Positions 5,128 through 42,379 of a stretch of DNA of 60,657 nucleotides are shown in pieces (position 1 is the first letter of the stretch; every line of letters starts with the position of its first letter). The notes below the pieces were generated by a model that saw only the letters and a program-made list of their open reading frames with translations, searched no databases and had not been told where the DNA came from. Both the position numbers and the translations under genes were made by a program. Source of the stretch: a virus (Duplodnaviria; Caudoviricetes); IMG/VR virus record IMGVR_UViG_3300012201_000001, positions 1-60,657 of that record. The stretch is one strand, 5' to 3'.

Positions 5128-5669
5128 GGCGTCGCCCTCCCCAGCCCGCGCAGCGCCAGCGCGTGGATCAGCTCGCCGTCGACCGGCCCGTCATGGTTCG
5201 GCTCCGTCAGCCTGGCGATGTTCTCCAGGGCCGCGCGCTGCTCCTCATGCCTGGTCGTCTTCGACCGCAGACCTCCGGGGGCTGGATCAGCGAACGTCGG
5301 CTCCGGCTCGTGCTCGTCCGCGCGCAGGACGCAGATCCGCTCGATGCCGTCCTCGTCCTCGGAGACGTGGCCGCACAGGCGCAGCTCGGCGAACTCCGGC
5401 AGGAACACCATCTCGTGGCGCGGAGGCGCGGCGTACGCATGGTCGGCCCCGGTCGTCTTCGACGCGACGCGCCTAGCGCTCATCGCGCTGATCCTCCACC
5501 GGAAGCGCGATCTCGTGGCCCCAAACGTGGTCGCACTCGGGGTAGCGGAAGCCGACGCTGACGCGGGCAAGGCCGTCGAGCGCTCCGCCCACCGCCACGC
5601 CCTGACGGACGTGGGCTCGGTTCGGGACTTCCCTCTTGCAGCTCGGACAGGTCACGCGGTCGCGCGGCA

Positions 5670-5942
5670 TCACCATTCCTGGTACCAGTCCCACTTCGAG
5701 CGCGGGTTGTACGTGCTCAGCGCGTAGAGGCCGTGCTCGTCGACCCCGCCCTCGTGCCCATGCCAGTCCCCCATCTTGGCCGCCAGCTGGTGCAGGTCGC
5801 TCGTCCCGTAATGCTTCGCCATCTCCTCCAGGTCCTCGCCCTCCTCGTACTCTGGGTGGGGCTCGACCTCCGTGTTCTCGTCGTAGGGCTCTAGCTGCTT
5901 CTCCGGGTCCGGCCCCAGGACCCACACCAGGAAGTGACTCAT
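5670..5942 (-). CDS. Conserved phage hypothetical protein (short form)
   Basis: 'MSHFLVWVLG...LEPYDEN...TYNPRSKWDWY'. Confidence 0.7.
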   Translation of the reverse strand: MSHFLVWVLGPDPEKQLEPYDENTEVEPHPEYEEGEDLEEMAKHYGTSDLHQLAAKMGDWHGHEGGVDEHGLYALSTYNPRSKWDWYQEW

Positions 5943-6205
5943 CGCAGCACCGCCAGCTCGCGCAGCGGCTCCAGGTATTGCTCCGCCGCCCCGACCAGCG
6001 AGTAGGTCACGGCCACGGGCGGGCCCGCGTCGACGTCGCGCCGCAGCAGCCCCGCCCGCTCCAGGTCGCGCAGCCGCTCGGAGAGGACGCGGTCGCTAAC
6101 GCCCTCGACGTGGGCCAGCAGCCAGTTGAACCGCCTGCCCTCACCGTCGAGCGCGAGCAGGATCTCCGGGGCCCAGCGCCTGCTGAGCAGCTCCAGGCCG
6201 GTCAT
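5939..6205 (-). CDS. HxlR-family winged-helix transcription regulator
   Basis: 'LLSRRWAPEILLAL...RRFNWL...GVSDRVLSERLRDLERAGLLRR...PPVAVTYSL'. Confidence 0.85.
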   Translation of the reverse strand: MTGLELLSRRWAPEILLALDGEGRRFNWLLAHVEGVSDRVLSERLRDLERAGLLRRDVDAGPPVAVTYSLVGAAEQYLEPLRELAVLR

Positions 6206-6402
6206 CCCCGCTGCACGGCCTCGTCGACCGTGACGGCGGCGTACGAGCTCGGGTTCTGTCGACGGATCGTTTCGAGGACCCGCATCGCGTCCTCCGGGCT
6301 GTCGAACTCGAACCGGCCGATCTCCTGATCCTCCTTCTCCCCCTTCCGAGCGACGATGACCTGGTTGCCTACGACCGTGTAGAGGAAGGTGAACTTGGGC
6401 AT
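6202..6402 (-). CDS. Hypothetical protein
   Basis: 66 aa, strong RBS AGGAGGAG. Confidence 0.65.
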   Translation of the reverse strand: MPKFTFLYTVVGNQVIVARKGEKEDQEIGRFEFDSPEDAMRVLETIRRQNPSSYAAVTVDEAVQRG

Positions 6403-6441
6403 TCTCAGCTCCTCCTGCCGTGGTTAGTAGCGGGCCGAAGG

Positions 6442-6471
6442 ATAGTAACCCCACGGGCCCGCGGTGGTCCA
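6442..6471 (-). promoter_or_regulatory. Candidate sigma70-like promoter
   Basis: Minus strand TGGACC-N18-TACTAT upstream of the gene starting at 6402. Confidence 0.35.
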
Positions 6472-6483
6472 CACCCCTTCCCT

Positions 6484-7242
6484 TTACTTCAGCGCGACCC
6501 ATGCTGAGAAATTCATCCATCGCCAGAACACGTCGACCTCGCGAAAGCCCGCGTCGCGCAGCATGCGCTCGTTCATCGACGGCGGGACCGGGACCTGCAC
6601 GCCCTCCAGCGCCAGCCGCTTGCGGTCGATCTCCTCGCGCGTGTAGCCGTTGGCCGCCTTCATCGCGTGGTAGGTCTCGACCTGGAGCGCCTCCAGCGTC
6701 GCCCCCTCGCCGAGCACCTTCTCCACCAGGACCAGCGCCCCGTCCGGGAGCAAGGCGTCGTAGCACTTGCGGAGGATCCGCTGCCGGTAGTTGATCGGCG
6801 TGAACATCAGCGTCAGCACCGCCTGGACCAGTGACGCCTTGGCGTACGGGAAGTCGGTCCGCAGGTCCGCCTCGTGGAGCTGGATCACGCCCTGGCGGAT
6901 CCAGTCCGCGTAGCGCTCTTGGAATGCCAGCACCATCGGCTCCGAGGTCTCCACGCAGACGTAGCGCACGGTCGCCCCGAAGCGCTTGAGCAGCGGCACG
7001 ATGGCCTCCCCGCGCGAGGTCCCGAGGTCGACCACGTCCGTCCCCGGCTTGACGAACCAGGCCCCGACGTCGAACACCGCCCGGCGCATGACCTCGTACT
7101 GGGGGACGCTCCTCTCCAACATTTCGTCGAAGACATCGGTGACCGCGGCGTTGAATTCCCAGCTCGAGCCCATCGTCTCGTGGATGCCGACGTCGCGCCG
7201 CTCGTCCGGGTCCCTCGCGCGTTCTCCCTGCATGGGGTTCAT
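6484..7242 (-). CDS. cmoA: CmoA-like carboxy-S-adenosylmethionine synthase
   Basis: 'WEF...VFDEMLERSVPQY', 'DLGTSRG', 'LTLMF', 'RKRLALEGV', 'WRWMNF' parallel the CmoA signature motifs. Confidence 0.85.
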   Translation of the reverse strand: MNPMQGERARDPDERRDVGIHETMGSSWEFNAAVTDVFDEMLERSVPQYEVMRRAVFDVGAWFVKPGTDVVDLGTSRGEAIVPLLKRFGATVRYVCVETSEPMVLAFQERYADWIRQGVIQLHEADLRTDFPYAKASLVQAVLTLMFTPINYRQRILRKCYDALLPDGALVLVEKVLGEGATLEALQVETYHAMKAANGYTREEIDRKRLALEGVQVPVPPSMNERMLRDAGFREVDVFWRWMNFSAWVALK

Positions 7243-7384
7243 CCTCGCCCTGATCGTGCTTCTGATCGCGCTCGGGACGGCCCTCGGCCTGATCTCGGGC
7301 GCTCACCTGCTGTGGTGGATGATCGCGCTGCTGGCGCTCGCGGTCCTGGTCGGCGGCTGGGCCGCGTTTCCCTGGCGTCGCTGA
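7232..7384 (+). CDS. Small membrane protein (about 2 TM helices), antisense to the cluster
   Basis: MGFILALIVLLIALGTALGLISGAHLLWWMIALLALAVLVGGWAAFPWRR; nearly all third codon positions are G/C. Confidence 0.55.
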   Translation: MGFILALIVLLIALGTALGLISGAHLLWWMIALLALAVLVGGWAAFPWRR

Positions 7385-7820
7385 GCGCCTCGCGCAGGAA
7401 CCTCTTCGCTCGCCGCACGTTCGCGGCGTCGTTCCACCAGCGGTTGACTCCGGAGGGATGCGGCAGGACCGCGTAGAGCTTGCGCGGCCGATGGCTGAAG
7501 TACCAACAGCACGGCTCCAGCTCGCGCGCGACCGACGCGCCCAGCATCCGCTCGGCGACGCCGCGGCCGACGAAGACGATCATCGCGGAGGCGGCGATCA
7601 GGGACAGGACGCCGTCGTCGATCAGGCGCGGGAACCGGTCGCCCTTCCCGTTCTTGCCAGGCCAGCGGTCGCTCAGGTTAATCCGCAGGGCGCGGGCCCC
7701 GAACGCCTCCTCCGACAAGCCTGAGAGCTCCAGGAGCCTCCGCCCGGACCGGCCGGCCGGGGACAGGGCCGAGGCTGGGTCCGACGTCCTGGAGGGCGCC
7801 TGGCCGACCAGCAGGATCAC
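7239..7820 (-). CDS. Uracil-DNA glycosylase superfamily protein
   Basis: 'LLVGQAP', 'SGRRL', 'LPHPSGVNRWW' UDG-fold motifs. Confidence 0.75.
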   Translation of the reverse strand: MILLVGQAPSRTSDPASALSPAGRSGRRLLELSGLSEEAFGARALRINLSDRWPGKNGKGDRFPRLIDDGVLSLIAASAMIVFVGRGVAERMLGASVARELEPCCWYFSHRPRKLYAVLPHPSGVNRWWNDAANVRRAKRFLREALSDARETRPSRRPGPRAPAARSSTTAGERPRSGRGPSRARSEARSGRG

Positions 7821-9259
7821 CGCCCCACTTTCCCCTTGGCCTGGTCCAGGACCTGGCGCACGGAGTCCGCGATCGCCCGCGCCATTGGCGGCGGGACCGC
7901 GCGCCCCAGCCGCTCCCAGCGCTGCGAGTACGTGCCCGTGAGCACGAAGTCGTCCGGGAACCCGCACAGCCGCCGCAGCTCCTCCAGCGTGAACTTGCGC
8001 GCCTGCGTCGGGTGCGCCACGCCCGCGACGCCGCGCCGGTTGTTCTCGGCCACGATGGTCGGCACCGGCTCGCGCTCGTCCGGCCGCACCAGGTTGAAGT
8101 AGCGGTCTGACGACTCCCCGGGCTGGAGGCGGCGGTAGAAGGGCGCCAGCGCGTGGCCCTCCATCGTGATCCGGTAGCCGGTCTCCGGGTCCGTCTCCAG
8201 CACGGCGAAGCGCTGGGCTTGCTTGCCGTCGCCTCCCCCCGCCGCCGCCAGGACCGTCGGCAAGGGTTCGTCGAGGTCCACCCGCATGCGCGGTGACCCC
8301 GACCAGGGCCTGGTTACGATCTGCGCGTCAGTGATCTCGTACTCCTGCATCTGCGCGCCCTGGGCGGCTATAGCCGGGCTTGGCTTGTCGAGGGCGACCG
8401 GAGCGCGTTTCAAACGCGCTCCGCCCCGATAGTTGATGGCAGCAGGGCGGACGCGGTAACGGCTGGCTGAACCGCCGCTGACCCGAATGGTGCCGATTGG
8501 CTCCGTCTCTAGACCGAACGCGGTTCTTCCCTCGTACGCCATGGTGTCTTTGATGACGCCGCCCAGGTGGGGCAGCGCGTCGCGGATCGAGTAGCGGTAA
8601 GGTAGCGGCGTCGGGAACGCCGGCTCGAGGCCGAGGTCCTCCCGTACGCCGATCAGGATCACCCGCCGCCGCGCCTGCGGGACGCCGAGCCACTGCGCGT
8701 CCAGCAGCTTGGCCCGGACCACGTAGCCCTGCGCCGCCAGCTGGGCGTGGATCTCCTTGAAGTAGCCCCTCGCCACCCCGCGCAGGAGCCCGCTCACGTT
8801 CTCCGCCACGAACACCTTGGGCCGGAGCTCCCCGACCAGGCGCGCGAACTCCGTGAACAGGTCGTCCGTCCTCTGGCGGACGTCCGAGTACTTCCGGACC
8901 TCTCCCCAATGCTTCGCCCGGCTCCCGCTCATGCTGAACGAGGCGCACGGCGGTGACCCCTCCAGGACGTCGATCTCCTGGCCCTTGCCCAGCCCGCGCA
9001 CCTCGGCGAGGGCGCGCACGCTCGCGCTCGTCACCTCGCGCACGTCGCGCGGGTCCGGCTCCCAGCCCTGGTTGGCGGCGAACGTCTCCCGCGCCGCGGG
9101 CACGAACTCGGACGCGTACACGGTCCGGAACCCGGCCCAGCGGAAGCCGAGGCAGGAGCCGCCCGCGCCCGTGAAGGTGGAGACCACGTTGTAGCCGTTC
9201 CACGGCACCGCGCGCAGCTCCTCCATCGAGGGGATCCGGTACGGGGGCTTCTCGCTCAT
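7817..9259 (-). CDS. C5-cytosine DNA methyltransferase-like enzyme, predicted carboxymethyltransferase
   Basis: Motif I FTGAGG, IV GSPPC, VI ENV, VIII QARRR, IX RLCGFP; motif X is GRAV instead of GNAV. Confidence 0.9.
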   Translation of the reverse strand: MSEKPPYRIPSMEELRAVPWNGYNVVSTFTGAGGSCLGFRWAGFRTVYASEFVPAARETFAANQGWEPDPRDVREVTSASVRALAEVRGLGKGQEIDVLEGSPPCASFSMSGSRAKHWGEVRKYSDVRQRTDDLFTEFARLVGELRPKVFVAENVSGLLRGVARGYFKEIHAQLAAQGYVVRAKLLDAQWLGVPQARRRVILIGVREDLGLEPAFPTPLPYRYSIRDALPHLGGVIKDTMAYEGRTAFGLETEPIGTIRVSGGSASRYRVRPAAINYRGGARLKRAPVALDKPSPAIAAQGAQMQEYEITDAQIVTRPWSGSPRMRVDLDEPLPTVLAAAGGGDGKQAQRFAVLETDPETGYRITMEGHALAPFYRRLQPGESSDRYFNLVRPDEREPVPTIVAENNRRGVAGVAHPTQARKFTLEELRRLCGFPDDFVLTGTYSQRWERLGRAVPPPMARAIADSVRQVLDQAKGKVGR

Positions 9260-9498
9260 TGTCGCGTCGCACGCGTGCGACGACCCGCCCTGCCGCCCCT
9301 GCTCACCGTGACGGTCACGCACTCCGTCGGCTCCGGCAGCGATCTCGGGTCCACGTCGGCCACGTCGCGCATCGCGTCCGCGATCGTCAGCGCGGGCATC
9401 ATCGAGCAAGGGCACAGAACGCGTCGACGGTCCCCAACCTTGTAGAGCCTGCGGCAGCGCGGGCAGCGCGCGCAGCGCCTAGCCTGCTCCGTCATCAA
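9256..9498 (-). CDS. Small Zn-finger hypothetical protein
   Basis: Cys-rich, overlap-coupled to the MTase start. Confidence 0.45.
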   Translation of the reverse strand: MMTEQARRCARCPRCRRLYKVGDRRRVLCPCSMMPALTIADAMRDVADVDPRSLPEPTECVTVTVSRGGRAGRRTRATRQ

Positions 9499-10009
9499 AC
9501 TGGAACCCGCAGCGGGGGCAGGTGTGCGCCAGCGCCCCGTTCGGGCTCGCCTCCGGGAACTCCACCGGAGCCTCCGCCGCCAGCTTCTTGATCAGCCGCT
9601 CCACGTCCCCGCGCTCCCACGCGGCCGCGGCCACGCCCTCCTCGTCCAGCGAGCCGAGGATCCGCGCCAGCATCGCGTCGTCGTAGCGGCTGAAGTCCGA
9701 CGTCCGGTTGTCCGCGAGCATGATCTCCAGCGCCTGCTGGGAGTCGCCCTTGATCGGCAGCCGGTGGACCTGCATGCTCGCCCGCCCCAGCGATAACGCC
9801 GCCTGGTAGGTGTGGTTGCCGGCCAGGATGTAGCCGTCCTCGGAGATCACGATGGCGCGGAACTGGCCGTGGGCCGCCAGCGACTGCGCGATCAGCTCCG
9901 GGTCCGCGGCGCGCGGGTTGGCGGGGTGCTGCCTGAGCTCCTCGACGTCGACCGTCTCCAGGTTCAGCTCGGGCAGGATCCGGCGCGCCTGCTTGACCTT
10001 GGCCGCCAC
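9479..10009 (-). CDS. ParB/Srx N-terminal-domain protein with C-terminal Zn ribbon
   Basis: 'LRQHPANPR', 'SLAAHGQFRAIVI', 'ILAGNHT', 'LADNR', 'CPRCG'. Confidence 0.8.
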   Translation of the reverse strand: MAAKVKQARRILPELNLETVDVEELRQHPANPRAADPELIAQSLAAHGQFRAIVISEDGYILAGNHTYQAALSLGRASMQVHRLPIKGDSQQALEIMLADNRTSDFSRYDDAMLARILGSLDEEGVAAAAWERGDVERLIKKLAAEAPVEFPEASPNGALAHTCPRCGFQFDDGAG

Positions 10010-10018
10010 GCGCGAAGT

Positions 10019-10372
10019 CTACCGTCGCCGTGCCTGCCGCGCGCGCTGCCATCGCTCGCGGTCCTCCGTCGACGGCAGGAGGCCGCCCGGCCGCTCCTGC
10101 GTGCTGGCGTAGAGACGCTCCCCGAACCCCACTCCTGCCCGCGCGCTCAGCGATGCCACGTCCAGCGCGCACCAGCCCGCAGCGCACCGATGGTCGTCCG
10201 CCGCGCGCTGCGCCTTCGGCCGCGTCTCCTCGTCGACCAGGACTCCGCACGCCGGGCAACCCCAGCGGAAGCGGTAGACCGGGTTGGAGTAGCCGCCGCC
10301 CTGGAGGAGCACGTACACGACGCGCTGGCGCTCGCTGGTCGACGGCAGGGAAACGACGGCGCTTTGGTTCAC
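10019..10372 (-). CDS. Hypothetical protein
   Basis: 117 aa with CPAC motif. Confidence 0.45.
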   Translation of the reverse strand: MNQSAVVSLPSTSERQRVVYVLLQGGGYSNPVYRFRWGCPACGVLVDEETRPKAQRAADDHRCAAGWCALDVASLSARAGVGFGERLYASTQERPGGLLPSTEDRERWQRARQARRR

Positions 10373-10884
10373 GGCAACGCCTCCTGGCGCGTGCGCAGCG
10401 CCAGCTCGGTCACCTTCACGGACAGGCAGGGCTCCCCGAACTGCTTGCGCTCGTGCGACTCCACGATCGCGTTGTCGTCGAGCACCACGTACGCCTGCGT
10501 GAGCGAGTCGTAGACCGCGCGCACCAGCTTGTCCAGGTCCGGCTTGGTCACCTTCTCGGCCGGCGCGCTGCGCAGGAGCTGGCCCGCGTTCTTGCCGCTC
10601 CCGTAGTGACCGGCGGGGCGGGCGAAGTTGAACTCCAGCTCCACCATCGCCGCCTCCATCGGCCTGTCCATCCCGGCCGCGACGCGCGCGCTGCGGGCGG
10701 CGTCTATCACCCGACCCGCCCAGCGCAGCAACTCCGTCTGGTTGTCGGGGATCAGTATCGTCTTCCCCGTCAAACGACCCCGCCCTGGAACCGGGCGCAG
10801 GCTACCCTTCGGCGTCGGTTCCCCGAACACGGTGAACTCCAGGACCCTGCCGGCGACCTCGACGCTCACGTCCGTTCCCTCCAT
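10369..10884 (-). CDS. rusA: RusA-family Holliday junction resolvase
   Basis: 'GEPTPKGS', 'KPDLDKLVRAVYDSLT...DDNAIV'. Confidence 0.85.
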   Translation of the reverse strand: MEGTDVSVEVAGRVLEFTVFGEPTPKGSLRPVPGRGRLTGKTILIPDNQTELLRWAGRVIDAARSARVAAGMDRPMEAAMVELEFNFARPAGHYGSGKNAGQLLRSAPAEKVTKPDLDKLVRAVYDSLTQAYVVLDDNAIVESHERKQFGEPCLSVKVTELALRTRQEALP

Positions 10885-11157
10885 GCATGCCAGGCCAAGT
10901 GCAAGAGAAAGGCAGTGACCAGAATCGCAATCGTCAGTGCCATCAGCGCTTGGTCGGTCATCGCTTGCGCGCCTCTTCTGCCGCCGTGTTGTGGAGGTCC
11001 ATGAGCGCGCGCCCTGCGAGTTCCTCATCCTGCCGGAGCAGCTCGGGTGACATCGGGATCACGACCTCCAGCCCGTCCGGGTGGAGGAAGCCGACGATGA
11101 CCTGTCCGGGGTAGTTGACGCGGAACCGCTCGAGCCGCTCCGCCAGCCCTCGCGCCG

Positions 11158-11490
11158 TCATCGCCCCGCCCTCCGCCTGCGGTAGTAGCCGCCCGGCCGT
11201 GCCTCCCACACCTCGACCTTGGTCGCCGGTCCGCCCACGCCCTGGTCCTCCCAGCGCTGCTTGACCTCCGTCGCCTCGACCCCGTCCAGGACCTGCTCGA
11301 TGGCGACCAGCACGCCGTCCGAGACGCCGACCACCAGGTCACCGACGACCGCCTGCTCCAGCAGCGAGCGCCGCCTCGGCTTCTTCGGCTCCGTGCCGGG
11401 GATGGTCGTCTGCCCGATCGCGAGCGACCCGTCGACCATGCCTGCGATCCCTCTCCGCTTCGTCTGCGTCGCCGTGGCTTCGTCCGTCAT
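11158..11490 (-). CDS. Hypothetical protein
   Basis: Starts MTDEATATQ, overlap-coupled. Confidence 0.45.
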   Translation of the reverse strand: MTDEATATQTKRRGIAGMVDGSLAIGQTTIPGTEPKKPRRRSLLEQAVVGDLVVGVSDGVLVAIEQVLDGVEATEVKQRWEDQGVGGPATKVEVWEARPGGYYRRRRAGR

Positions 11491-12020
11491 CTCTCGAACC
11501 TCGCTTGTTCCTTCCACGAGCCGAACGACGGCGGCTCGACACCGTTGAGGTCGGCGACCTCGCACACGTACCCGAATCGCCGGTTGGCCGGCCACTCCGT
11601 CCCGTCCTGGTCGAAGAACAGCAGCGCCAGCGATCCCTTGGCCGCCAGCGCCGCCGTCACGTACCGCCGCAGCTCCTCCACCGCCGCGCTCTGGAGCGCC
11701 GACCGCAGCTCGCGGTCCAGCCCGTGACCGACGCGCCCCGTGACCGCGCGGTGATGCGCGCGGCAGAGGCAAGCGCAGACGAGGTGCGACGAGCTCCAGG
11801 GCTCCCGCTCCCGCCCGAAGTTGTGGTGGCGCTCCAGCAAGACGGTGGTCCCGCATCCGAGGACCTCGCAGCGACCCGCCCGCATCACGACGCTCCGCTC
11901 GTGCTCGATCCACGCCCGCCACTCCGCCGCCTTCGTCGAGACCGGCCGCAGGCGCTGCCCGCGCTCGAACCTGCTCCTGGTTCGCAGCGGCGTCCTCCGC
12001 CTCAGCTCCGAGCGCCTCAA
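11487..12020 (-). CDS. HNH-like/Zn-binding hypothetical protein
   Basis: 'MRRSELRRRTPL', 'CEVLGC...ERHH...CLCRAHH'. Confidence 0.6.
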   Translation of the reverse strand: MRRSELRRRTPLRTRSRFERGQRLRPVSTKAAEWRAWIEHERSVVMRAGRCEVLGCGTTVLLERHHNFGREREPWSSSHLVCACLCRAHHRAVTGRVGHGLDRELRSALQSAAVEELRRYVTAALAAKGSLALLFFDQDGTEWPANRRFGYVCEVADLNGVEPPSFGSWKEQARFER

Positions 12021-12023
12021 CCG

Positions 12024-12176
12024 ACTATCACCTCTCCACTATCTCCTCCGTCGCCCCCGGTCCCTTCCTCGACCCGGGGTTAACTATCACCCCCCTCCTA
12101 TAGGAGGGGTGATAGTAACCGGGGAGAGCAGGACCTCCGGGCGGACTATCAGGGACGACTATCAAGGAACTATCAC
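12024..12176. repeat. ACTATCA iteron-like repeats with central palindrome (candidate origin)
   Basis: ACTATC(A) at 12024, 12038, 12083, 12145, 12158, 12169 and inverted at 12110-12116. Confidence 0.7.
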
Positions 12177-12179
12177 ACC

Positions 12180-13589
12180 TCACCCGATCTCCTCCTGGTC
12201 CTCCGGCGCGGGCCGGTCGAGGTCCTCCTGGACGTTGCCCGGGTCCAGCTCGTAGCGCCCGTCGGCGAGCCTGATGACCAGGCCCCGCTTGACCATCCGT
12301 CCGAGCGCGGTCAGCATCCGCGCCACGTCGTCCTTGGTCGCCTTCATGCCCAGCGCCGAGCGCAGGGCTCCGGGGTCCTGCGCCCCCTCCCGCAGCTCGG
12401 CCAGGACCCGCTGCGGCAGCGGGAGCTGCTTGGCGAGCGACTCGTCCGTGATCTTCTCCGTGAAGTCAAACCGGATGTCCTCCCCCTGGCGCTCGATCAC
12501 GATCCCCAGCGGCGCCATCTTCCAGGAGTAGTTGGCCTTGGTGTGCTTTAGCACCAGCTCCTGCCGCGTCGCCGTCGCCTCCCGCTCCCCGGCCAGGTAG
12601 AACATCTGCCGCGCCAGCCACTGCTTGGAGACCGAACCGTAGCTCTTGAGCGGCGTCTCCCCGCTCCCGTTTTGGCGCATCGCCTCCCCGGTCACGTGGT
12701 CGATCAGCAGCCAGGTGACGTCGGTCCCGCTGACCTCGCGGATGGTGGTGAACGCCTTGATCGCCGCCTCCGCCGGGTCCGCCTCCGCGTGGGCGACCCC
12801 GAACGCCTGGTTGACCGCGTCGACGATGACCAGGCCGAAGCCGTTCTCCGTCACCAGGTCGGCGATCGCCTCCGCGTCGTCCGCCAGCCTGCGCCTGCAC
12901 GCGCGGTAGGCCACCGCCCGCGGCGAGAGCCTGGCGCCCCGAGCTACCGCGTTCAGCCGGTCCTGCCAGATCTCGCGCGTCGCCTCCCAGTCCAGGATGA
13001 GCACCGGCGCCGTCTCGGCCACGGTCCAGCCCGTGAACACGCTGCTGCCGGATTCCACGGAGAGCGCGACCGCCGCCGCCAGCGTCGACTTGCCGGTCCC
13101 GCCCTCCCCATAGAGCAAGGTCGGCATCCCCCGCGGCAGCATCGGCCCCAGCAGGTAGCGCAGCGGGGTCGAGCGCGCCTCCGGGTCCGTGCGCTGGAGC
13201 GGCTCCCCCTGGCGCTCCAGGCGCACCACCTCGCGACAGAAGAGGTCCAGGTACTGGCCCCAGTCACCCGTCACCCGCTCCCCCAGACGTTTGGCGATCC
13301 CCTCCCGCGTCCGCGGCGCGAGCAGGTTCATGACCCCCCACTCGATCACCCCGTCGACCGTGCCCGCGCTCGGGCAGCTGATGGTGAGCTCCCCGTCGAA
13401 GGAGTTGCTGCTCAGGTGCTCCTTGAGGTGGGTGACCTTGATCGTGACCGCGCCCATCCGCGCCACCCAGCCCAGCGCGATCCGCTCCAGCTCCGGCGCC
13501 CGCTCCGCCCGCGCCAGGACCGGCTTGGCGCCCTCCTGGACCGCCTGGCGCGCCGCCTCCCGTCCGACGGTCGTCTTAGCGGTCCCCAA
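12180..13589 (-). CDS. RecA-fold/AAA replicative helicase-like protein
   Basis: Walker A 'GEGGTGKST', 'LILDWE', Walker B 'LVIVD', C-terminal wHTH-like tail. Confidence 0.8.
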   Translation of the reverse strand: MGTAKTTVGREAARQAVQEGAKPVLARAERAPELERIALGWVARMGAVTIKVTHLKEHLSSNSFDGELTISCPSAGTVDGVIEWGVMNLLAPRTREGIAKRLGERVTGDWGQYLDLFCREVVRLERQGEPLQRTDPEARSTPLRYLLGPMLPRGMPTLLYGEGGTGKSTLAAAVALSVESGSSVFTGWTVAETAPVLILDWEATREIWQDRLNAVARGARLSPRAVAYRACRRRLADDAEAIADLVTENGFGLVIVDAVNQAFGVAHAEADPAEAAIKAFTTIREVSGTDVTWLLIDHVTGEAMRQNGSGETPLKSYGSVSKQWLARQMFYLAGEREATATRQELVLKHTKANYSWKMAPLGIVIERQGEDIRFDFTEKITDESLAKQLPLPQRVLAELREGAQDPGALRSALGMKATKDDVARMLTALGRMVKRGLVIRLADGRYELDPGNVQEDLDRPAPEDQEEIG

Positions 13590-17301: not shown

Positions 17302-18650
17302 GTCGACCCCTCCAACGGCGGCAGGCCGCGCAGCCGCTCGCGCAGCCAGTCGGCGTGCTCCACGCGCAGCTCGGCGAACTTGGAGACCTCGCTCCCCGTC
17401 TCCGCGTTCATCGCCCGGATCGCCGCCCGCAGGCGCTCCAGCGCCTCCCCTCGCCAGGGGTTGGCGACGGAGGAGAACGGACGCCCCGGATCCTCCAGCC
17501 CGCCCGCCAGCTCCTTCAGCTCGTCGAGCTGGGCGCGGACCAGGAAGGGGCCCGGCTCCGAAGGCTCGCCAGGCAGGCCGGGTTCGGCGGAGCGGCCCTC
17601 GGCGGGCTCGCGGGACTCCTGGTCCCCGACCGCCGCCTTGGCCGTCCTAGGGCCTCGCAGGTCCTCCGGCACCAGGTGCTCCGGAAGCAGCCCCGCCACC
17701 GAGTCCACGGTCAGCCCCAGCGGGCTCGCGTTCAGGCGCTTGAGCGTCTCCCGCTGCGGCTCCGAGAGGAAGACCTCGCTGAGCGGGATCGCCGCCCAGC
17801 GCTGGACCTCGCGGACGTCGAAGCGCAGGGCGCAGGTCCAGTGCACCGACTTGACGCCGCGGTAGGTGGTCGTCGCCTTGCGGACCAGGGTCAGCGGCAC
17901 CCCCGCCGTCCGCCCCGCCAGCGAGGCCACCTTGAGGTCGAAGTCTGACTGCAGGTCCTTGATGCTGTTCACCGACCCCGTCGCCAGCTCCATGATCCCC
18001 AGCCACTTGCAGTAGTCCGGGTGCGAGGGGTCGGTCGCCGGGTGGAGCAGGACCGCGCGCAGGATCGCCACCGCCTTGCACGACGCGTCGGGGTCGTGAT
18101 CGGCCGCCAGCATCTGCTTGGTCTTGCTCGGGTCCTGCGGGTCCGGCTGCTCGGTCAGGTGCAGGTACTTCGGGCAGTCGCGGCCCCAGCAGCGCACGCG
18201 GTAGCGCGCCTGGCCGGAGGTCGAGGGCAGCGGCTCCGCGGCCTGGCCGGTCGCCCTCTCGATCCGCACCGCCCATGCCTCCTCGGTCGTGACCGCGTAG
18301 TCCGGCGACTCCGCGCTGTAGCCGTGGCCCTTGCACTTGAGGCCGCGCTGGCTGCCGTAGGCGCGGTTGTTGAGGTTGAACACCAGCTCGTCGCCGTCGC
18401 GGGTCTTGGCGTCCCATTCCTGGTAGAGCATCATCCGCAGCGCCTTGGGCTCGTGGCCGTAGATCTCCTGCACGTCCTCGGGCGCCTCGTCGAGGACGAA
18501 GTAGTCCGTCTCCGTCGGGTAGGTGCCGCGCATCGGCTCGGAGCGCGCGGCGCGCGTCCTGCCCGCGGCGGTGTTCCTGACGCGGACGCCGAGCCGGACC
18601 CGAAAATCACGACCAATCCTTCTGGCCTCGGACAACTCTGCGATCGGCAT
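17298..18650 (-). CDS. Gp3-like (recombination directionality factor-like) protein
   Basis: 'MPIAELSEARR...YPTETDYFV...IYGHEPKAL...YG...LKCKGHG' pattern; near the exonuclease. Confidence 0.7.
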   Translation of the reverse strand: MPIAELSEARRIGRDFRVRLGVRVRNTAAGRTRAARSEPMRGTYPTETDYFVLDEAPEDVQEIYGHEPKALRMMLYQEWDAKTRDGDELVFNLNNRAYGSQRGLKCKGHGYSAESPDYAVTTEEAWAVRIERATGQAAEPLPSTSGQARYRVRCWGRDCPKYLHLTEQPDPQDPSKTKQMLAADHDPDASCKAVAILRAVLLHPATDPSHPDYCKWLGIMELATGSVNSIKDLQSDFDLKVASLAGRTAGVPLTLVRKATTTYRGVKSVHWTCALRFDVREVQRWAAIPLSEVFLSEPQRETLKRLNASPLGLTVDSVAGLLPEHLVPEDLRGPRTAKAAVGDQESREPAEGRSAEPGLPGEPSEPGPFLVRAQLDELKELAGGLEDPGRPFSSVANPWRGEALERLRAAIRAMNAETGSEVSKFAELRVEHADWLRERLRGLPPLEGST

Positions 18651-19111
18651 CAGGCCGCCCTCCTGCGAACTCGGTAGCTTAGGCGACAGGTCCGGCACGA
18701 GCGATAACCGCGCCTGTCGACGTAGGTGTTCGTCTCGTCATAGGGATGCCCGCGGGGGCAATGCGTCCTGCTGAGATAGCGGGCTACGAGGACGTCCGGC
18801 CCCGGGCCACGCAGCACGTTCTCCCGGCGAGTGACGGGCTCTATGTGAAGCGGATTCACGCACCATCGATGTCGGCAGAGATGGTCAGCTTCTCGCCCTG
18901 CAGGGAACGCCCCGATCATCTCCTGATAGAGAACTCGATGAACTAGCTGCAGACTGCAGCCGAAACTGACCGTTGCATAGCCAGCGCTCTGATGGCCGCC
19001 GCTCCATTCCCAGCAGCCGAAGCTTGTCGGGCGGACTCTGGAGAGAATCGAGTCGACCGTGTTTCGAAAACGGCCTACGCGGCGCGCCTCGCTCAGCTCT
19101 GCGATGGGCAT
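18650..19111 (-). CDS. HNH homing endonuclease
   Basis: 'GCWEWSG...GYA...VHRV...DHLCRHRWCVNPLHIEPVTRREN...THCPRGH'. Confidence 0.9.
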   Translation of the reverse strand: MPIAELSEARRVGRFRNTVDSILSRVRPTSFGCWEWSGGHQSAGYATVSFGCSLQLVHRVLYQEMIGAFPAGREADHLCRHRWCVNPLHIEPVTRRENVLRGPGPDVLVARYLSRTHCPRGHPYDETNTYVDRRGYRSCRTCRLSYRVRRRAA

Positions 19112-19179: not shown

Positions 19180-20325
19180 CTAGCTCTCGACTGATGGTTG
19201 GTATTCCTCCTTCGACATGCCGAATGTCCACGCGACTGCGCTTGCGCAATCCCGCAGGCCTGGATCGACTCTTATCAAATAGTTTTTCCAGGTCCCATCC
19301 GGCTCCTCGGTGCTATTCGTGACCTCGACAGCTACCAACGCCTCATCGTTAGGTTGCTCAACACGTAGCAGGCGGCGTCGCTTGCCGAGTTGGTCCTTGT
19401 CCTCGTGCACGATCTTGGCGTCGACTTCGGCCATGAAGCGATCCACGCCCATACGCTCAAGCATCACTCGGCGGACTTCGACGTTCGGCTCCTCAGTCAC
19501 GTGCTTGGCCGTAATCCAGTCCGGCCGGACGACCACGAAAGCCGGGACCATCACGCCATGCCAGAAATAGAGGTTCTCGATGTCCGACTCAAGGGCCGCG
19601 TACTTCTGGTGATGTAGACGGCGCATCCCGAGACGGTCGTCGCGCTCCACACTCACCTTCGGCTTCGCCACCCAGTAGAGCGTGTCGTCGGTCCAGTAGA
19701 GGAGCCATGCGCCAGCGACAAAGGCCTCAAACAGGGGTTTCGCCCAGCGATCGACCACCGGCTTACCGAGTTGGTCCGCACCGAAATGAGTCGTGACGAT
19801 CCACGACAGGTCCCAGCCGTACCACCACCACACTTGCAAACACCAGGCGGCGAACCTCTGCATCGACTCGCGGGCGTCGCGGGCGTCGAGGGCGTCGCGG
19901 GCGACGAGGGCGGCGCGGGCGACGCGGGCGGCGCGGGCGTCGAGGGCGTCGCGGGCGTCGCGGGCGTCGCGGGCGGCGAGGGCGTCGCGGGCGGCGAGGG
20001 CGGCGCGGGCGACGCGGGCGGCGCGGGCGGCGCGGGCGTCGAGGGCGTCGCGGGCGTCGCGGGCGTCGCGGGCGTCGAGGGCGGCGCGGGCGTCGCGGGC
20101 GGCGCGGGCGGCAGGCGACCGCTTGAACCATTCATCGAGAATGCTGTTCACGCTTCGCAATAGCGCAGGCTCCTCGTGGACCGACCAGCCCGGTCCTAGG
20201 CGTCGAACCTGCCGCTTGATACCCAAGGCGCTCAGGTAGCGAGCCAGGTGCCGCTCTACCCCAGCCTCATTGAGAGAGCTGGGGTAGTCACATGCGGCCT
20301 CGTAACGCTGTCGGTCAGTCGCCAC
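19180..20325 (-). CDS. DUF6745-like protein with internal tripeptide repeat
   Basis: 'LYFWHGV', 'NVEVRRVMLERMG', 'YLIRVDP...AVAWTFG'. Confidence 0.8.
   Translation of the reverse strand: MATDRQRYEAACDYPSSLNEAGVERHLARYLSALGIKRQVRRLGPGWSVHEEPALLRSVNSILDEWFKRSPAARAARDARAALDARDARDARDALDARAARAARVARAALAARDALAARDARDARDALDARAARVARAALVARDALDARDARESMQRFAAWCLQVWWWYGWDLSWIVTTHFGADQLGKPVVDRWAKPLFEAFVAGAWLLYWTDDTLYWVAKPKVSVERDDRLGMRRLHHQKYAALESDIENLYFWHGVMVPAFVVVRPDWITAKHVTEEPNVEVRRVMLERMGVDRFMAEVDAKIVHEDKDQLGKRRRLLRVEQPNDEALVAVEVTNSTEEPDGTWKNYLIRVDPGLRDCASAVAWTFGMSKEEYQPSVES
19867..20109 (-). repeat. In-frame 9-bp tandem repeat, about 27 units
   Basis: GCC C(G/T)C G(A/C/T)C encoding A(R/L)(D/A/V). Confidence 0.92.
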
Positions 20326-21015: not shown

Positions 21016-22412
21016 TTATAGGTGAACGCGGGGCCCGTGGGCGAGCTCTTTCTCCTCCACCGCGCGGTAGAACCGGGCGGGGTTGGGGAGAACCTGTTCC
21101 ACGCTCTGTTTCAAACCCAGCCCGTCCTGGAACGCGACCTTGGCGCGGTCCACGACGCGGTCGGGGAGGCGGCCGCGGAACGCCTCTCGGAGGACCGCCT
21201 TCGACCGCCCTCCGCGCTCCACGACGTCGCGCGGCAGCGAGAGCGCCAGCTCCACCAGCGGCCGGTGCAGGAAGGGGAGGCGGCACTCCACCCCGCTCGC
21301 CATGAAGACCTTGGTTGCAGCGGGCGAAGTTCTTGCGCGCCTGGTCCAGCACCAGGTCGCGGCGGTAGGGGTGCCAGCCCTTCTGCCGGACCCCGTGGTA
21401 GGCGAACCCGTACGAGGCCCACAGCTCGTCCGAGCCCTCGCCGCTGAACACGACCTTGAACCCGTCCTCGCACATCCGGCGCGCCAGCAGAAGGCACGGC
21501 CAGCCGATCTCGACCTGAGCCTTGTGCGACATCTCGATCACGCGCACCACCTCGGCCAGATCCTCTGGCGTCGGCGTCGGGACCTCGACCTCGCGCAGCT
21601 CGAGCCCCAGCTCGGCCGCCACCAGGCGCGCGCTCCGGAGGTCCTGCGAGCGCGGATCGTGGACCGCCGCGTAGCAGACCAGGCCCGGCATCTGCCTCGA
21701 CGCCAGGAGCGCGATGGCGGAGGAGTCCAGCCCCCCGGAGAGGAGCGAGCAGACGGGCACGTCGCTGATCAGGCGCTCCACCACCCCGGCCTCCAGCAGC
21801 TCGCCCACGCGCGCGGCCGCGGCCTCGAAGCTGATGCGCGGGTCGGGGGCGATGGGCGGCTCGTACCAGCGATGGCGCGTCGCCGGCCCCGTCCGGCGTC
21901 ATCGTCCAGCGTTCCCCCGGCCCCACGTCGACGACCTGGTCGACGCCGAGCGCGGCCAGGCCCTTGCGCTCCGACGCGAAGCAGCCTCGGCCGGCGCAGA
22001 GCGGGACCTCCCCGAAGCGGTCCCGCGCCAGGTAGAGCACGCTCCCGTCGCGCGACCAGGCGACCGCGAACATCCCCTCCAGCCGCGGCAGCGCGTCCGC
22101 TCCCCACTCGTCCAGCGCGGTCGCCAGGACCTCGGTGTCCCCAGTGGTCGTGAACTTCCGCCCCCGGCGCTCAAGGTCTCGCCGGACGCGGGCGTGGTTC
22201 CAGATCTCCCCGTTGAACACGATCCCCGTCCGCCCGCGGCGCATCGGCTGGTTGGAGCGCGCGTCCGGGTCCAGGATCGCCAGCCGGGTGTGCCCCAGCG
22301 TCAGGTCGCCGAGGACGGTCAGCCCGCGCGCGTCCGGACCCCGGTGGGCGAGCGCGTCCACCGCCTCGCCGAAGCGATCCGGGAGGCCGTAGGAGCCCAC
22401 GATCCCGCACAC
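21016..22412 (-). pseudogene. asnB: Asparagine synthetase B-like amidotransferase, interrupted by two +1 frameshifts
   Basis: 'MCGI...HRGPD...GHTRLAI...NGEIWN', 'LLSGGLDSS', 'SGEGSDE', 'VECRLPFL' lie in three frames; extra bases near 21888 and 21313. Confidence 0.8.
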
Positions 22413-40229: not shown

Positions 40230-40802
40230 CTATCCCTGGAGCATCAGCCTCGGGTCGCTGTAGACCGCGAGCGTGTCTACCAGGTGGCTCATCTTCAGCG
40301 GCCACTCGTCGAGCGCGGGCTTGATCCCCGGGCAGGTCTCCTCGTCGTAGTCGTGGAACGCGATCACGCCCCCGAACGGGACCACCAGCTCCATCGCCCA
40401 GTCGCGGTCGTGGCGGACGTCCGCGAGCTCGTGCCCGCCGTCCACGAAGACCAGCCCGAAGTAGCGGTGCGGGACCGCGGGCCCGCCGCCGTTCTCGCGC
40501 AGCTCCGCCGCCCCCTGCGACGTCCCGACGCAGACCTTGACCCGGCCCTTGAGGCCGAAGCGCTCGACGTTCGCGCAGAAGGCCGCCAGCGAGTCGTGTC
40601 CCGTGTGGGGGTCGACCGACCAAACGTCCTCCGCGCCCGCCAGGCCCATGATCACCGTGCTGTAGCCGAACGCGCTCCCGATCTCCAGCACCCGGCGGCC
40701 CTTCGCCAGCAGCGCCAGCTCCGCCGCCTCGGCCGCGGTTAGCGAGGTGAAGATCGGCGGCAAGCCGGGCTCCACCTCAACGTCGCGCCAGGTGAGCCTC
40801 AC
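40230..40802 (-). CDS. Class I SAM methyltransferase (Methyltransf_24-like)
   Basis: 'VLEIGSAFGYST', 'FVDGGH', 'GGVIAFHDY'. Confidence 0.85.
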   Translation of the reverse strand: MRLTWRDVEVEPGLPPIFTSLTAAEAAELALLAKGRRVLEIGSAFGYSTVIMGLAGAEDVWSVDPHTGHDSLAAFCANVERFGLKGRVKVCVGTSQGAAELRENGGGPAVPHRYFGLVFVDGGHELADVRHDRDWAMELVVPFGGVIAFHDYDEETCPGIKPALDEWPLKMSHLVDTLAVYSDPRLMLQG

Positions 40803-42379
40803 TCAGGCGCGACCGGGTCCGGCAGCACGCGCAGCCCCGCCTCCGCCGCCCGCTCCCGCGCCGCCTGGCCCTGCGCCCTGCGCAGCCTCTCCTCGAAGCG
40901 CAGCTTGTCCGTCTCCGCGTGCCTCTGCCCGAGCTGGTAGACCTCGTCGTCCTCGCCCTTCTTGAAGATCGGGTGCATGTGCTCGACCAGGGAGCCGAGC
41001 GCCATCGCGAAGGCTCCCCGCATCCGCGCCGCGGTCACGATCTCGTCGTCCACGAACCAGTGCCGGTAGGTCTCGTGGCAGACCACGCCCGGACCGTCCC
41101 ACGACGCCCCCACCGCGTCCACGTACTCGCGCCGGATCAGCAGGTGGGTCGCGTGCTCGCCCCGCATCACGCGCGGGTTGGAAAGGTCGTTGGTCCCGAT
41201 CACCAGGTGGCGCTCGGTCGCCGTCCCCACCGCGTGGTCGAGCCAGCCCGCGTGGAAGCGGACGTCGTCGCCGACGATGAAGATCCACGGCTCCCTGGTC
41301 TGCCGGAACCCGTCGTTGACCTTCTCGCTGAAGCGGCCGGGCCGGAAGCGACCGTCGGGGTCCTCGCGCGGGACGGGGTGGAGGACCGTCGCCCCCGCCT
41401 CCCGCCAGGCCTTGATCGTCTCCTCGTCGTCGCGGTCCGCGATCGCGTAGCAGGTCGCCAGCCCGGTCGAGGCGCGCAGCGAGTCCATGAAGGGCGCCGC
41501 GTTCCCCGGCCGGCGCATCACCGGGACCAGGACCGCCACCCGCTCCGTCGCCGGGGGCGGCACCGCCTGCCGCCAGAAGTCCGGCTCCGCCAGCCAGAGC
41601 GACTTGTGGTGCGTCGAGCGCGCGCCCGTGAACACGTGGACGGGGATCCCCAGCGACCCCGCGCGGAGGCAGAACGAGAGGTCCTCGCTGATGAGCTGGC
41701 CCTTCTGGGTCGGGTTGGGCGCGCGGTCGTACCAGGCGGCCCCGAACTTCTCGTTGATGCGCTCGAACACGCCCCGGTGGACCACGATCAGCGCGCTCCC
41801 CGTCCCCGCGCAGCGCGTCAGCCCGTTGACCGGGTAGCTCGCGCGGGCGTGGAACCCGGTCGGGCCCGCCTGCTCCTCGCCGTTCTTGGCCCCGTCGACC
41901 CAGTCGAAGATGGTCACGCTCGGCCGCGTGCGGAACCCTCCCTGGCCGTCCGGCTGGACCTCGCGCTGGGCGAAGCAGAGGCCGCCCACGATCGGTCGCT
42001 CCTCGGCGTCCGCGAACGAGAGTAGCTTCTCCAGCGTGTCCGGCTCGAAGCCCATGTCCGTGTCCGTCCAGAACAGCCAGGGCGCGCCCTCGGGCTCCTC
42101 CAGGAACCACTCCACGACCTTGTTGCGGGCGGCGATCAGCCCGTCCGTCCCGGCGCGCATCGCGATGTAGCCGCCGTTCAGGATCCGCTGGTGCCGCGAG
42201 AGGTCGAGCGCGAACAGCTGCATGACCGACTCGTGCCAGGAGTAGCTGACCGAGACGTCGTGGACGAAGGCGAGCTTGACCGCGTCCGGTCCGGAGCTGG
42301 CGGGCTTGCTCCGGCCGCTACTCCTGCGGCGCGCGGCGCGCGACACGCTTCTCGCCTGGGTCCGCGCTCGCGGTCTCAA
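40799..42379 (-). CDS. Tandem two-domain GT-A glycosyltransferase
   Basis: Domain 1 'ARNKVV...WTDTD...SEDLSFC'; domain 2 'VLVPVMRR...VGDD...WFVDDE...EHMHP'; start uncertain. Confidence 0.8.
   Translation of the reverse strand: MRPRARTQARSVSRAARRRSSGRSKPASSGPDAVKLAFVHDVSVSYSWHESVMQLFALDLSRHQRILNGGYIAMRAGTDGLIAARNKVVEWFLEEPEGAPWLFWTDTDMGFEPDTLEKLLSFADAEERPIVGGLCFAQREVQPDGQGGFRTRPSVTIFDWVDGAKNGEEQAGPTGFHARASYPVNGLTRCAGTGSALIVVHRGVFERINEKFGAAWYDRAPNPTQKGQLISEDLSFCLRAGSLGIPVHVFTGARSTHHKSLWLAEPDFWRQAVPPPATERVAVLVPVMRRPGNAAPFMDSLRASTGLATCYAIADRDDEETIKAWREAGATVLHPVPREDPDGRFRPGRFSEKVNDGFRQTREPWIFIVGDDVRFHAGWLDHAVGTATERHLVIGTNDLSNPRVMRGEHATHLLIRREYVDAVGASWDGPGVVCHETYRHWFVDDEIVTAARMRGAFAMALGSLVEHMHPIFKKGEDDEVYQLGQRHAETDKLRFEERLRRAQGQAARERAAEAGLRVLPDPVAPE

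Follow-up and report, generated by a model that had tools for sequence, protein, structure and literature searches.

Synechococcus phage S-B43 provides the closest described counterpart of the system examined here, a four-gene operon on the minus strand (positions 6484-10009) of the virus record IMGVR_UViG_3300012201_000001 (Duplodnaviria; Caudoviricetes), whose full 60,657 nucleotides are referred to below as the window. In S-B43, the CmoA homologue SpCmoA makes carboxy-S-adenosylmethionine (Cx-SAM), with which the cytosine C5-methyltransferase (C5-MTase) homologue SpCmoX writes 5-carboxymethylcytosine (5cxmC) at GC sites (Yang et al., Nat Commun 2025, PMC12783734). SpCmoX accepts only Cx-SAM and is inactive as an R350N variant, and 5-carboxymethyldeoxycytidine (5cxmdC) was formed in vitro, and in E. 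coli only with cmoA present (PMC12783734). In the 1.9 Å structure 8YF3, Arg350 of SpCmoX replaces Asn304 of HhaI and touches the carboxymethyl group. A further enzyme, SpCmoY, ligates glycine, and the glycine amide was the only form seen in native S-B43 DNA; DNA modified by SpCmoX was protected from HhaI (PMC12783734).

The same study retrieved 5,615 CmoX candidates, defined by SPPC and R350, from IMG/VR v4, UniProtKB and MGnify, and counted 4,257 CmoA, 2,251 ligase and 1,660 ParBc genes among their neighbours (PMC12783734). Its second-largest ligase cluster carries a glutamine amidase domain, for which ammonia is the predicted substrate; the enzyme was insoluble and its product not shown. The target specificities of CmoX homologues are given there as unknown. 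An engineered enzyme, M.MpeI N374K, also uses Cx-SAM to make 5cxmC (reference 21 of PMC12783734).

A candidate CmoA-CmoX operon

Considered as a whole, the operon in the window is best explained as a member of this phage CmoA-CmoX DNA hypermodification system, an assignment that homology makes probable. Its four genes, for ParB-like, C5-MTase, uracil-DNA glycosylase (UDG)-like and CmoA-like proteins, had been listed in an initial annotation made from the DNA letters, and are present on the minus strand at the place claimed there, in the order parB-like, a small open reading frame (ORF), cmoX, mini-UDG and cmoA. The features of the operon are as follows.

9479-10009, minus strand: ParB-like protein of 176 aa with a C-terminal CxxC (PHROG phrog_723, ParB-like, E 1.2e-30)
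9256-9495, minus strand: small Cys-rich ORF of 79 aa (CxxCxxC ... CxC), an uncertain gene between the ParB-like gene and cmoX
7817-9259, minus strand: CmoX-type C5-MTase of 480 aa from the ATG at 9259 (longest ORF 7817-9415; PF00145 E 6.4e-51)
8945-8956, minus strand: motif IV of the MTase, SPPC, residues 102-105 with catalytic Cys105, aligned to SpCmoX 95-98
7901-7903, minus strand: CGC codon of MTase Arg453 in motif X, LGRAVPP, aligned to SpCmoX Arg350 and M.HhaI Asn304
7239-7820, minus strand: UDG-like gene (ORF listed as 7239-7967), likely start GTG at 7820 (PF03167 E 7.8e-7)
6484-7242, minus strand: CmoA-like protein of 252 aa (TIGR00740 E 2e-44)
6616-6618, minus strand: codon of Arg209 in the CmoA-like protein, the counterpart of Arg199 in E. 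coli CmoA (chain residue 213; numbering offset 14)

The best solved relative of the MTase is SpCmoX itself (8YF3; E 2.3e-52, 181.8 bits), followed by M.HaeIII (7.5e-24, 87.7 bits), whose motif X in the same comparison reads GNAVP; the TIGR00675 family model scores 152.6 bits (cut-off 100.65). Identity to the S-B43 SpCmoX gene is 41% and 40% in two conserved blocks, and SpCmoX residues Phe25, Glu47, Phe48, Asp69, Cys98 and Arg350 are identical in the window enzyme (HMMER alignment, counted manually). The motif X reading LGRAVPP of the initial annotation was confirmed, with its Arg codon, CGC, at 7901-7903, as was the precedent that it invoked, M.MpeI N374K, which is presented in the Discussion of PMC12783734. 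In both enzymes the motif-X Asn is replaced by a basic residue; M.MpeI N374K is a CpG methylase engineered to carry Lys there, whereas the window enzyme is a natural Arg form of another clade that also lacks the motif-IV Gln, its catalytic Cys105 being followed by Ala where Gln is usual. The MTase thus carries both sequence features used in the published CmoX search (SPPC, and Arg at the R350/HhaI N304 position), and since the window is an IMG/VR record with both, it may well be among the 5,615 candidates. The variable region between the two conserved blocks is about 100 aa longer than that of SpCmoX, with residues ~210-387 having no SpCmoX counterpart, so that this enzyme need not share the GC specificity of SpCmoX.

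The CmoA-like protein covers positions 14-239 of the 239 in TIGR00740, can be aligned over its full length with both H. influenzae YecO and E. coli CmoA (4GEK, E 5.1e-30), matches phrog_4752 (E 1.8e-66), and is 27% identical to the experimentally active SpCmoA (E 2e-23). In E. coli CmoA, Arg199 forms a salt bridge to the Cx-SAM carboxylate and is CmoA-specific among SAM enzymes, and further cofactor contacts are Y39, D62, G64, S66, A70, D89, N90, D117, I118, N132, F137 and E164 (Byrne et al. 2013, PMC3663124). A manual count on the alignment found Tyr39, Asp62, Gly64, Ser66, Ala70, Asp117, Phe137 and Glu164 identical in the window protein, with conservative changes of Asp89 to Glu and Ile118 to Leu. 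Membership of the CmoA family is likely from these alignments, uncertified by a curated threshold. A search for a CmoB homologue in the phage found none (best match 12.7 bits), which makes a role of the CmoA-like protein in tRNA 5-carboxymethoxyuridine (cmo5U) synthesis unlikely.

Closer inspection of the gene boundaries revealed a chain of overlapping stop and start codons. The stop of the small ORF overlaps the cmoX ATG as ATGA, that of the MTase overlaps the GTG of the UDG-like gene as GTGA (7820-7817), and that of the UDG-like gene overlaps the cmoA ATG as ATGA (7242-7239); from the last two overlaps, cmoX, the UDG-like gene and cmoA are translationally coupled. We placed the MTase start at the ATG at 9259 because relatives align from its residue 3-4 and because G+C at third codon positions (GC3) in the frame upstream of 9259 is only 0.65. 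The small ORF has a GC3 of 0.85 against that 0.65, and yielded neither Pfam nor PHROG matches, nor tblastn relatives in 71 loci. The ParB-like protein matches PHROG ParB-like families with E values from 1.2e-30 to 2.1e-22, and in a test for the PF02195 domain gave no Pfam match at E<=0.01.

The co-occurrence of these features was surveyed in 41 MTase-seeded and 30 UDG-seeded IMG/VR loci, five contigs of metagenome-assembled genomes (MAGs) and one locus of Streptomyces phage TurkishDelight. Sixty of the fetched loci contain a motif-X-bearing MTase of this clade, 54 of Arg type and 6 of Asn type; these counts include near-identical loci (e.g. L049-L052, L056/58/59, L036/37) and so do not represent independent events, and all neighbour counts refer to the fetched flanks. 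A CmoA homologue was found at 41 of the 54 Arg-type loci compared with 0/6 of the Asn-type, and an AsnB-like gene at 16/54 compared with 0/6, while a ParB-like gene stands beside the clade MTase in 34/54 and 5/6, respectively. SPPC is present in all 51 loci where motif IV was found (51/51), and its Cys is followed by A or S in the 46 Arg-type loci but by Q in the 5 Asn-type loci, such that loss of the motif-IV Gln provides a second sequence signature of Arg-type enzymes. Asn-type relatives (L010, L049-L052) combine the motif-X Asn and a Gln after the catalytic Cys with no CmoA, and still have ParB-like and mini-UDG neighbours; in L051, an N6/N4 methylase gene adjoins the Asn-type MTase cluster.

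Together, these findings suggest that the MTase and the CmoA-like protein very probably constitute a natural 5cxmC writer, as the initial annotation had proposed; the proposal holds by homology to the characterised SpCmoX/SpCmoA system, with 8YF3 as best match and the contact residues kept. It is highly improbable that the MTase is instead an ordinary SAM-dependent 5-methylcytosine (5mC) enzyme, accompanied by an unrelated small-molecule or tRNA methyltransferase as an auxiliary gene. The MTase does match PF00145 and TIGR00675 as any Dcm-type enzyme would, and the CmoA-like protein also matches the generic models Methyltransf_25/11/12 and falls below the CmoA equivalog cut-off. However, the motif-X Arg is exactly that of the Cx-SAM-only SpCmoX and co-varies in the survey both with CmoA and with loss of the motif-IV Gln; furthermore, CmoA Arg199 is kept, CmoB is absent from the phage, and the genes are translationally coupled.

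Four considerations weigh against a 5cxmC writer. First, the support for this phage is homology, the biochemistry coming from other systems. Second, the CmoA-like protein reaches 152 bits with TIGR00740, less than the NCBIfam equivalog cut-off of 193.3, and 109 bits with NF011995 (cut-off 285). Third, it differs at two cofactor contacts, with Asn90 changed to Thr and Asn132 to Val. Fourth, 13 of the 54 Arg-type loci have no CmoA, so that the linkage to CmoA is strong but not absolute; in E. coli, the host enzyme can stand in for phage CmoA (PMC12783734).

In the mechanism that we propose, the CmoA-like protein would convert SAM and prephenate to Cx-SAM, Arg453 of CmoX would bind the carboxylate of this cofactor, and Cys105 would mediate carboxymethyl transfer to cytosine C5 after replication, yielding 5cxmC. 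The modifying enzyme may be activated, or guided on double-stranded DNA, by the ParB-like protein, as a thymine dioxygenase is by a phage ParB (O'Toole et al. 2026, PMC13229309). A subsequent ligase step appears to have been lost through two +1 frameshifts. By analogy with the resistance of SpCmoX-modified DNA to HhaI, the biological role is likely protection from host restriction.

The window resembles S-B43 in combining a CmoA homologue with a C5-MTase that has SPPC and an Arg at the HhaI Asn304 position, and in carrying genes for a ParB-like protein and a ligase of the Asn-synthetase family. It departs from S-B43 in several respects: the MTase blocks are no more than 40-41% identical and the CmoA proteins 27%; its ligase is of the Gln-amidase type and frameshifted, unlike the glycine-ligating SpCmoY; its operon holds a mini-UDG gene, of which there is none in the annotation of the 10.6-kb S-B43 locus; and its host is probably a high-GC soil bacterium, where that of S-B43 is cyanobacterial. 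The closest cultured relative of the MTase, with 52% identity over residues 3-270, belongs to phage TurkishDelight (gp122-gp125, NC_073473.1), where the gene order is ParB-like, MTase (with the motif-X Arg), Gln-amidotransferase-domain protein and a second MTase, which is CmoA-like (30% identity, E 1e-24). Unlike in the window, the TurkishDelight ligase is intact and lies between the two MTase genes, and no mini-UDG is present in the 9.5-kb locus. The MTase products are annotated there as 'methyltransferase' only, and we know of no experiment on the products of gp122-gp125.

The initial annotation had referred to similar phage clusters, rightly so (PMC12783734, December 2025), and the novelty is accordingly small. 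A pathway of a kind already published has been recovered independently from raw sequence and placed in a complete high-GC soil phage, and the additions made here are modest, namely decay of the ligase, loss of the motif-IV Gln, and the mini-UDG association.

An interrupted amide ligase

The AsnB-like gene at 21016-22412 had been proposed to amidate the product to 5-carbamoylmethylcytosine. Gln-amidase and Asn-synthase domains are indeed encoded there, but the gene is not a single open frame; it is divided into three pieces.

21016-22412, minus strand: AsnB-like Gln-dependent amide ligase, interrupted, in three pieces and three frames
22412 to ~21888, minus strand: N-terminal piece, Gln amidase (GATase_6 E 4e-34; GATase_7 E 3.2e-29)
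21874-21888, minus strand: frameshift 1 (+1), in a G/C-rich stretch and placed to this range, not to the base
~21877 to 21311, minus strand: middle piece, containing the SGGLDS loop (Asn_synthase positions 2-152, E 1.7e-30)
21313-21316, minus strand: frameshift 2 (+1), AACC in the window where CNKVFMA of the relatives implies AAC then AAG
21315 to 21016, minus strand: C-terminal piece (Asn_synthase positions 231-295, E 1.8e-17)

Three-frame translation and tblastn with five intact relatives indicated that each successive piece is shifted by +1; the relatives encode the ligase in a single frame, whereas the window needs three. The second site has the sequence AACCAAGG, against the AACAAGG implied by CNKVFMA in the relatives, corresponding to one extra C. 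When the whole window was crudely screened for changes of the coding-like frame with no stop in the preceding frame, the minus strand gave these two sites and no others; a single plus-strand flag, opposite minus-strand genes, was taken as a shadow effect. Logan contigs of runs X1 and X2 each include one of 25,169 bases that covers the ligase stretch with 0 differences at a word depth of ~12, from which the reads support both shifts. The position of the gene is also altered: it lies between cmoX and cmoA in the relatives and in TurkishDelight, and 11 kb away in the window.

Most likely, the ligase gene became a pseudogene recently. Given that it is split by two frameshifts, the final base is probably plain 5cxmC and not its amide, and we lean towards virion DNA that carries un-amidated 5cxmC; amidation to 5-carbamoylmethylcytosine is thus not supported for this genome. 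A naturally ligase-dead member of the system would display bare 5cxmC, unlike native S-B43 DNA. Some evidence points the other way. Runs X1 and X2 probably represent the source sample and may be one data set filed twice, and contigs of the other samples, X3 and X4, bridge neither frameshift site, so that the frameshifts are not independently confirmed. In addition, GC3 in all three ligase pieces is still 0.90-0.97, implying that any decay is recent.

These same observations would accord with a complete pathway, in which the frameshifts are assembly or sequencing errors, or are crossed by a ribosomal +1 bypass, and a functional ligase yields 5-carbamoylmethylcytosine. The ligase domains are right for such a pathway (GATase_6/7 with Cys2, and Asn_synthase with its SGGLDS loop), the GC3 of the pieces is coding-like, and ammonia ligation is predicted for Gln-amidase ligases, their product not being shown (PMC12783734). 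We nevertheless consider a complete pathway improbable, as it must accommodate two independent +1 shifts in one gene while the rest of the 60.6-kb gene-bearing strand has none, the same sequence in Logan's separate assembly, the single frame of the five relatives, and the displacement of the gene from the cmoX-cmoA interval.

A gene at 19180-20325 (minus strand), just downstream of the broken ligase and next to one for an HNH_3 endonuclease (18650-19111), encodes a protein with a DUF6745 match (E 9.4e-34). A long repeat rich in Asp, Ala and Arg, DARDARDALDARAARAAR, makes up the N-terminal half of this protein.

A virus-specific mini-UDG family

The initial annotation listed the UDG-like gene and assigned it no role; its association with modification genes is the sole lead in this analysis that might be new. 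The encoded protein has a conserved core of ~150 aa (7365-7820, minus strand), which matches PF03167 at 29.7 bits (cut-off 24.3) and phrog_12275, a family of unknown function (E 1.2e-19). We identified 211 homologues at E<=0.001, mainly of 140-160 aa and mainly unnamed, and the nearest ESM Atlas clusters are 93-98% viral; the mini-UDG is a virus-specific family of ~150 aa. Among 25 aligned members, invariant or near-invariant motifs are VGQAPS, N-x4-RWPGKxGKGDxFP and PHPSGVNRWWND, with G6, A8, P9, H121 and S123 invariant, as is the Asn of the N-x4-R-W-P segment.

UDG families 1 and 4 share a motif A of the form G-E/Q-x-P and a motif B of H-P-S, and the mini-UDG matches both, through VGQAPS and PHPSG, respectively. 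Family-4 UDGs also hold an Fe-S cluster through four Cys ligands; the mini-UDG core has only two Cys, which are adjacent, and the family alignment shows no conserved Cys, indicating that the cluster is absent and that the mini-UDG is not a canonical family-4 member. An AF2 model (pLDDT 82.9) retrieved with Foldseek the family-4 UDG from Thermus (1UI1, E 2.2e-4, TM 0.54-0.56), then UdgX and TDG, with TM values of ~0.45-0.56 overall.

The 41-residue tail that follows the core (7242-7364) was considered as a real domain and rejected, having a GC3 of 0.44, no counterpart in relatives and pLDDT <60. Opposite this tail and the initial 10 bases of cmoA, in antisense, lies a plus-strand ORF of 50 aa (7232-7384) with two hydrophobic, transmembrane-like stretches. 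Its G+C by codon position (0.70/0.48/0.92) is more coding-like than that of the UDG frame over the same interval (0.76/0.95/0.44), and tblastn against the 71 loci returned nothing meaningful for it.

A mini-UDG gene was found within or beside the MTase cluster in 4 of the 41 MTase-seeded loci and 13 of the 30 UDG-seeded loci, at varying positions, and five of these loci have Asn-type MTases without CmoA. The 382-aa protein P0122, encoded on a 58-kb contig, is an in-frame mini-UDG-CmoA fusion whose CmoA part is 50% identical to that of the window (E 4e-75); it represents the single CmoA fusion cluster among five longer mini-UDG homologues examined. Other longer homologues are fused to HNH_3 (P0077, P0082) or to sigma-70 domains (P0121, maybe a merge in gene calling). 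In two loci, radical-SAM/SPASM genes stand beside the mini-UDG.

Taken together, the mini-UDG is best explained as an accessory of CmoX and other phage pyrimidine-modification modules. That it acts as a uracil-type DNA glycosylase, removing U or 5-substituted U from the modified genome, is a possibility that we place a little short of even. The more specific idea that the family is a dedicated and undescribed partner of phage pyrimidine-C5 modification modules, acting as a Vsr-like safeguard in CmoX operons or tethering CmoA to DNA, is tentative and, on balance, doubtful. As a safeguard, the mini-UDG would excise uracil or 5-carboxymethyluracil from targets deaminated in the Cys-C6 intermediate when Cx-SAM is missing. 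Reportedly, C5-MTases deaminate their target cytosine when the cofactor is lacking, and the repair idea arises from this, from the scarcity of Cx-SAM and from the UDG activities that modified-pyrimidine phages are reported to keep (PMC13697223). E. coli Dcm-Vsr offers a functional likeness only: a repair enzyme co-encoded and overlapping with a C5-MTase corrects mutagenic side products of cytosine C5 chemistry, but Vsr is an endonuclease acting on T:G mismatches and does not have the UDG fold.

A phage parallel is provided by SP15-like phages with hypermodified pyrimidines, which encode PolA-UDG fusions and for which uracil removal has been proposed to protect the genome (Missoury et al., NAR 2026, PMC13697223). 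A UDG-superfamily module is kept there as in the window, and in one UDG-seeded locus (L072) the mini-UDG stands beside a fusion of a TET-associated glycosyltransferase (TAGT) with PolA. The UDGs of SP15-like phages are polymerase-fused and found in T-modifying phages, whereas that of the window is a free-standing 150-aa form (GQAPS, WPGKxGKGD, PHPSGVNRWWN) in a C-modifying operon. As for published links to such pathways, the main text of PMC12783734 and that of bioRxiv 2023.12.21.572611 contain no relevant mention of UDG, glycosylase or uracil; the only glycosylase mention in the main text of PMC8256090 is a 'DNA base glycosylase-like' aG/PT-PPlase gene, with no mini-UDG link; and the main text of PMC13229309 mentions only E. 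coli MUG and does not link a mini-UDG to its pathway.

Alternatively, the mini-UDG could lack catalysis and serve as an adaptor, binding DNA or flipping bases, through which CmoA (and hence Cx-SAM) or other modifiers reach DNA. Such tethering of the cofactor synthase would be hinted at by the natural fusion in P0122, and an adaptor would accord with the varied modifying neighbours (CmoX-type and Asn-type MTases, TAGT and radical-SAM genes) and with the GQAPS motif A, where Gln stands in place of the family-4 Glu. We consider it unlikely, however: only one fusion cluster occurs among the five longer homologues, neighbours with overlapping stop and start codons fuse easily, and the invariant motif-B His (PHPSG) and the Asn of N-x4-R-W-P fit a working pyrimidine pocket, a reading drawn partly from family-4 motifs. 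Structure prediction for a complex of mini-UDG and CmoA scored 0.01 (mark 0.32), which is evidence neither way.

An accessory role linked to pyrimidine modification also has observations that count against it. Sequence similarity to characterised UDGs is weak (Thermus 1UI0, E 0.85), and the best and only PDB match of the family profile is an uncharacterised protein, 3IKB (E 6.7e-8). Moreover, 17 of the 30 UDG-seeded loci have no clade MTase. The commonest neighbour family in these 17 loci is the TAGT family PF20691 (8 of 130 neighbouring ORFs), and BLAST clustering placed TAGT-related ORFs in 8 of the 17. Among five TAGT-linked mini-UDG records, a C5-MTase is encoded elsewhere in 2/5 and a TET/JBP match was found in 0/5, the latter being uninformative given that the model was silent in control genomes too. 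The TAGT-polymerase fusion of L072 (3906-7538, plus strand) is a 1,210-aa protein joining a TAGT domain to a family-A DNA polymerase, encoded directly upstream of the mini-UDG gene.

If the mini-UDG is indeed a repair partner or adaptor, this would bear on phage tolerance of the mutagenic side reactions that genome-wide cytosine C5 chemistry entails, and could help users of CmoX-type enzymes for DNA labelling.

Replication module and host

As a virus record, the window is complete: its 60,657 bases are bounded by direct terminal repeats, the G+C content is ~70% throughout, and nearly all of its genes lie on the minus strand. Its gene content is that of a tailed phage, comprising large terminase, portal, protease, major head, tape-measure and minor tail genes. 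Two further features lie just upstream of the operon, which places the modification genes in a replication module.

10369-11028, minus strand: RusA-like resolvase (PF05866 E 4.3e-7)
12180-13589, minus strand: helicase/primase-like ATPase

The window was found to hold only one copy each of cmoX, cmoA, the UDG gene and the ligase. A megablast search of positions 6000-12000 for near-identical phages gave zero matches in 50,697 phage records, and a scan of 5500-12500 identified 0 promoter-like and 0 terminator-like sites, which is uninformative for a high-GC phage.

The host is likely a high-GC soil bacterium, probably an actinobacterium, in view of the GC content, of the soil metagenomes that make up the runs in which the window sequence was found, and of the Streptomyces phage relative of the MTase. 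In genome collections, the MTase query retrieved the five MAG contigs, assigned to Verrucomicrobiales, Planctomycetaceae, Bacillota, Tepidisphaeraceae and Gemmataceae; every MTase among them is of Arg type and accompanied by CmoA, and 0/5 are actinobacterial.

Within the structural gene block, at 40799-42379 on the minus strand, we also identified a gene for a 526-aa protein consisting of two glycosyltransferase-like halves (PHROG E 6.4e-14 and 1.5e-7), which could target virion proteins instead of DNA.

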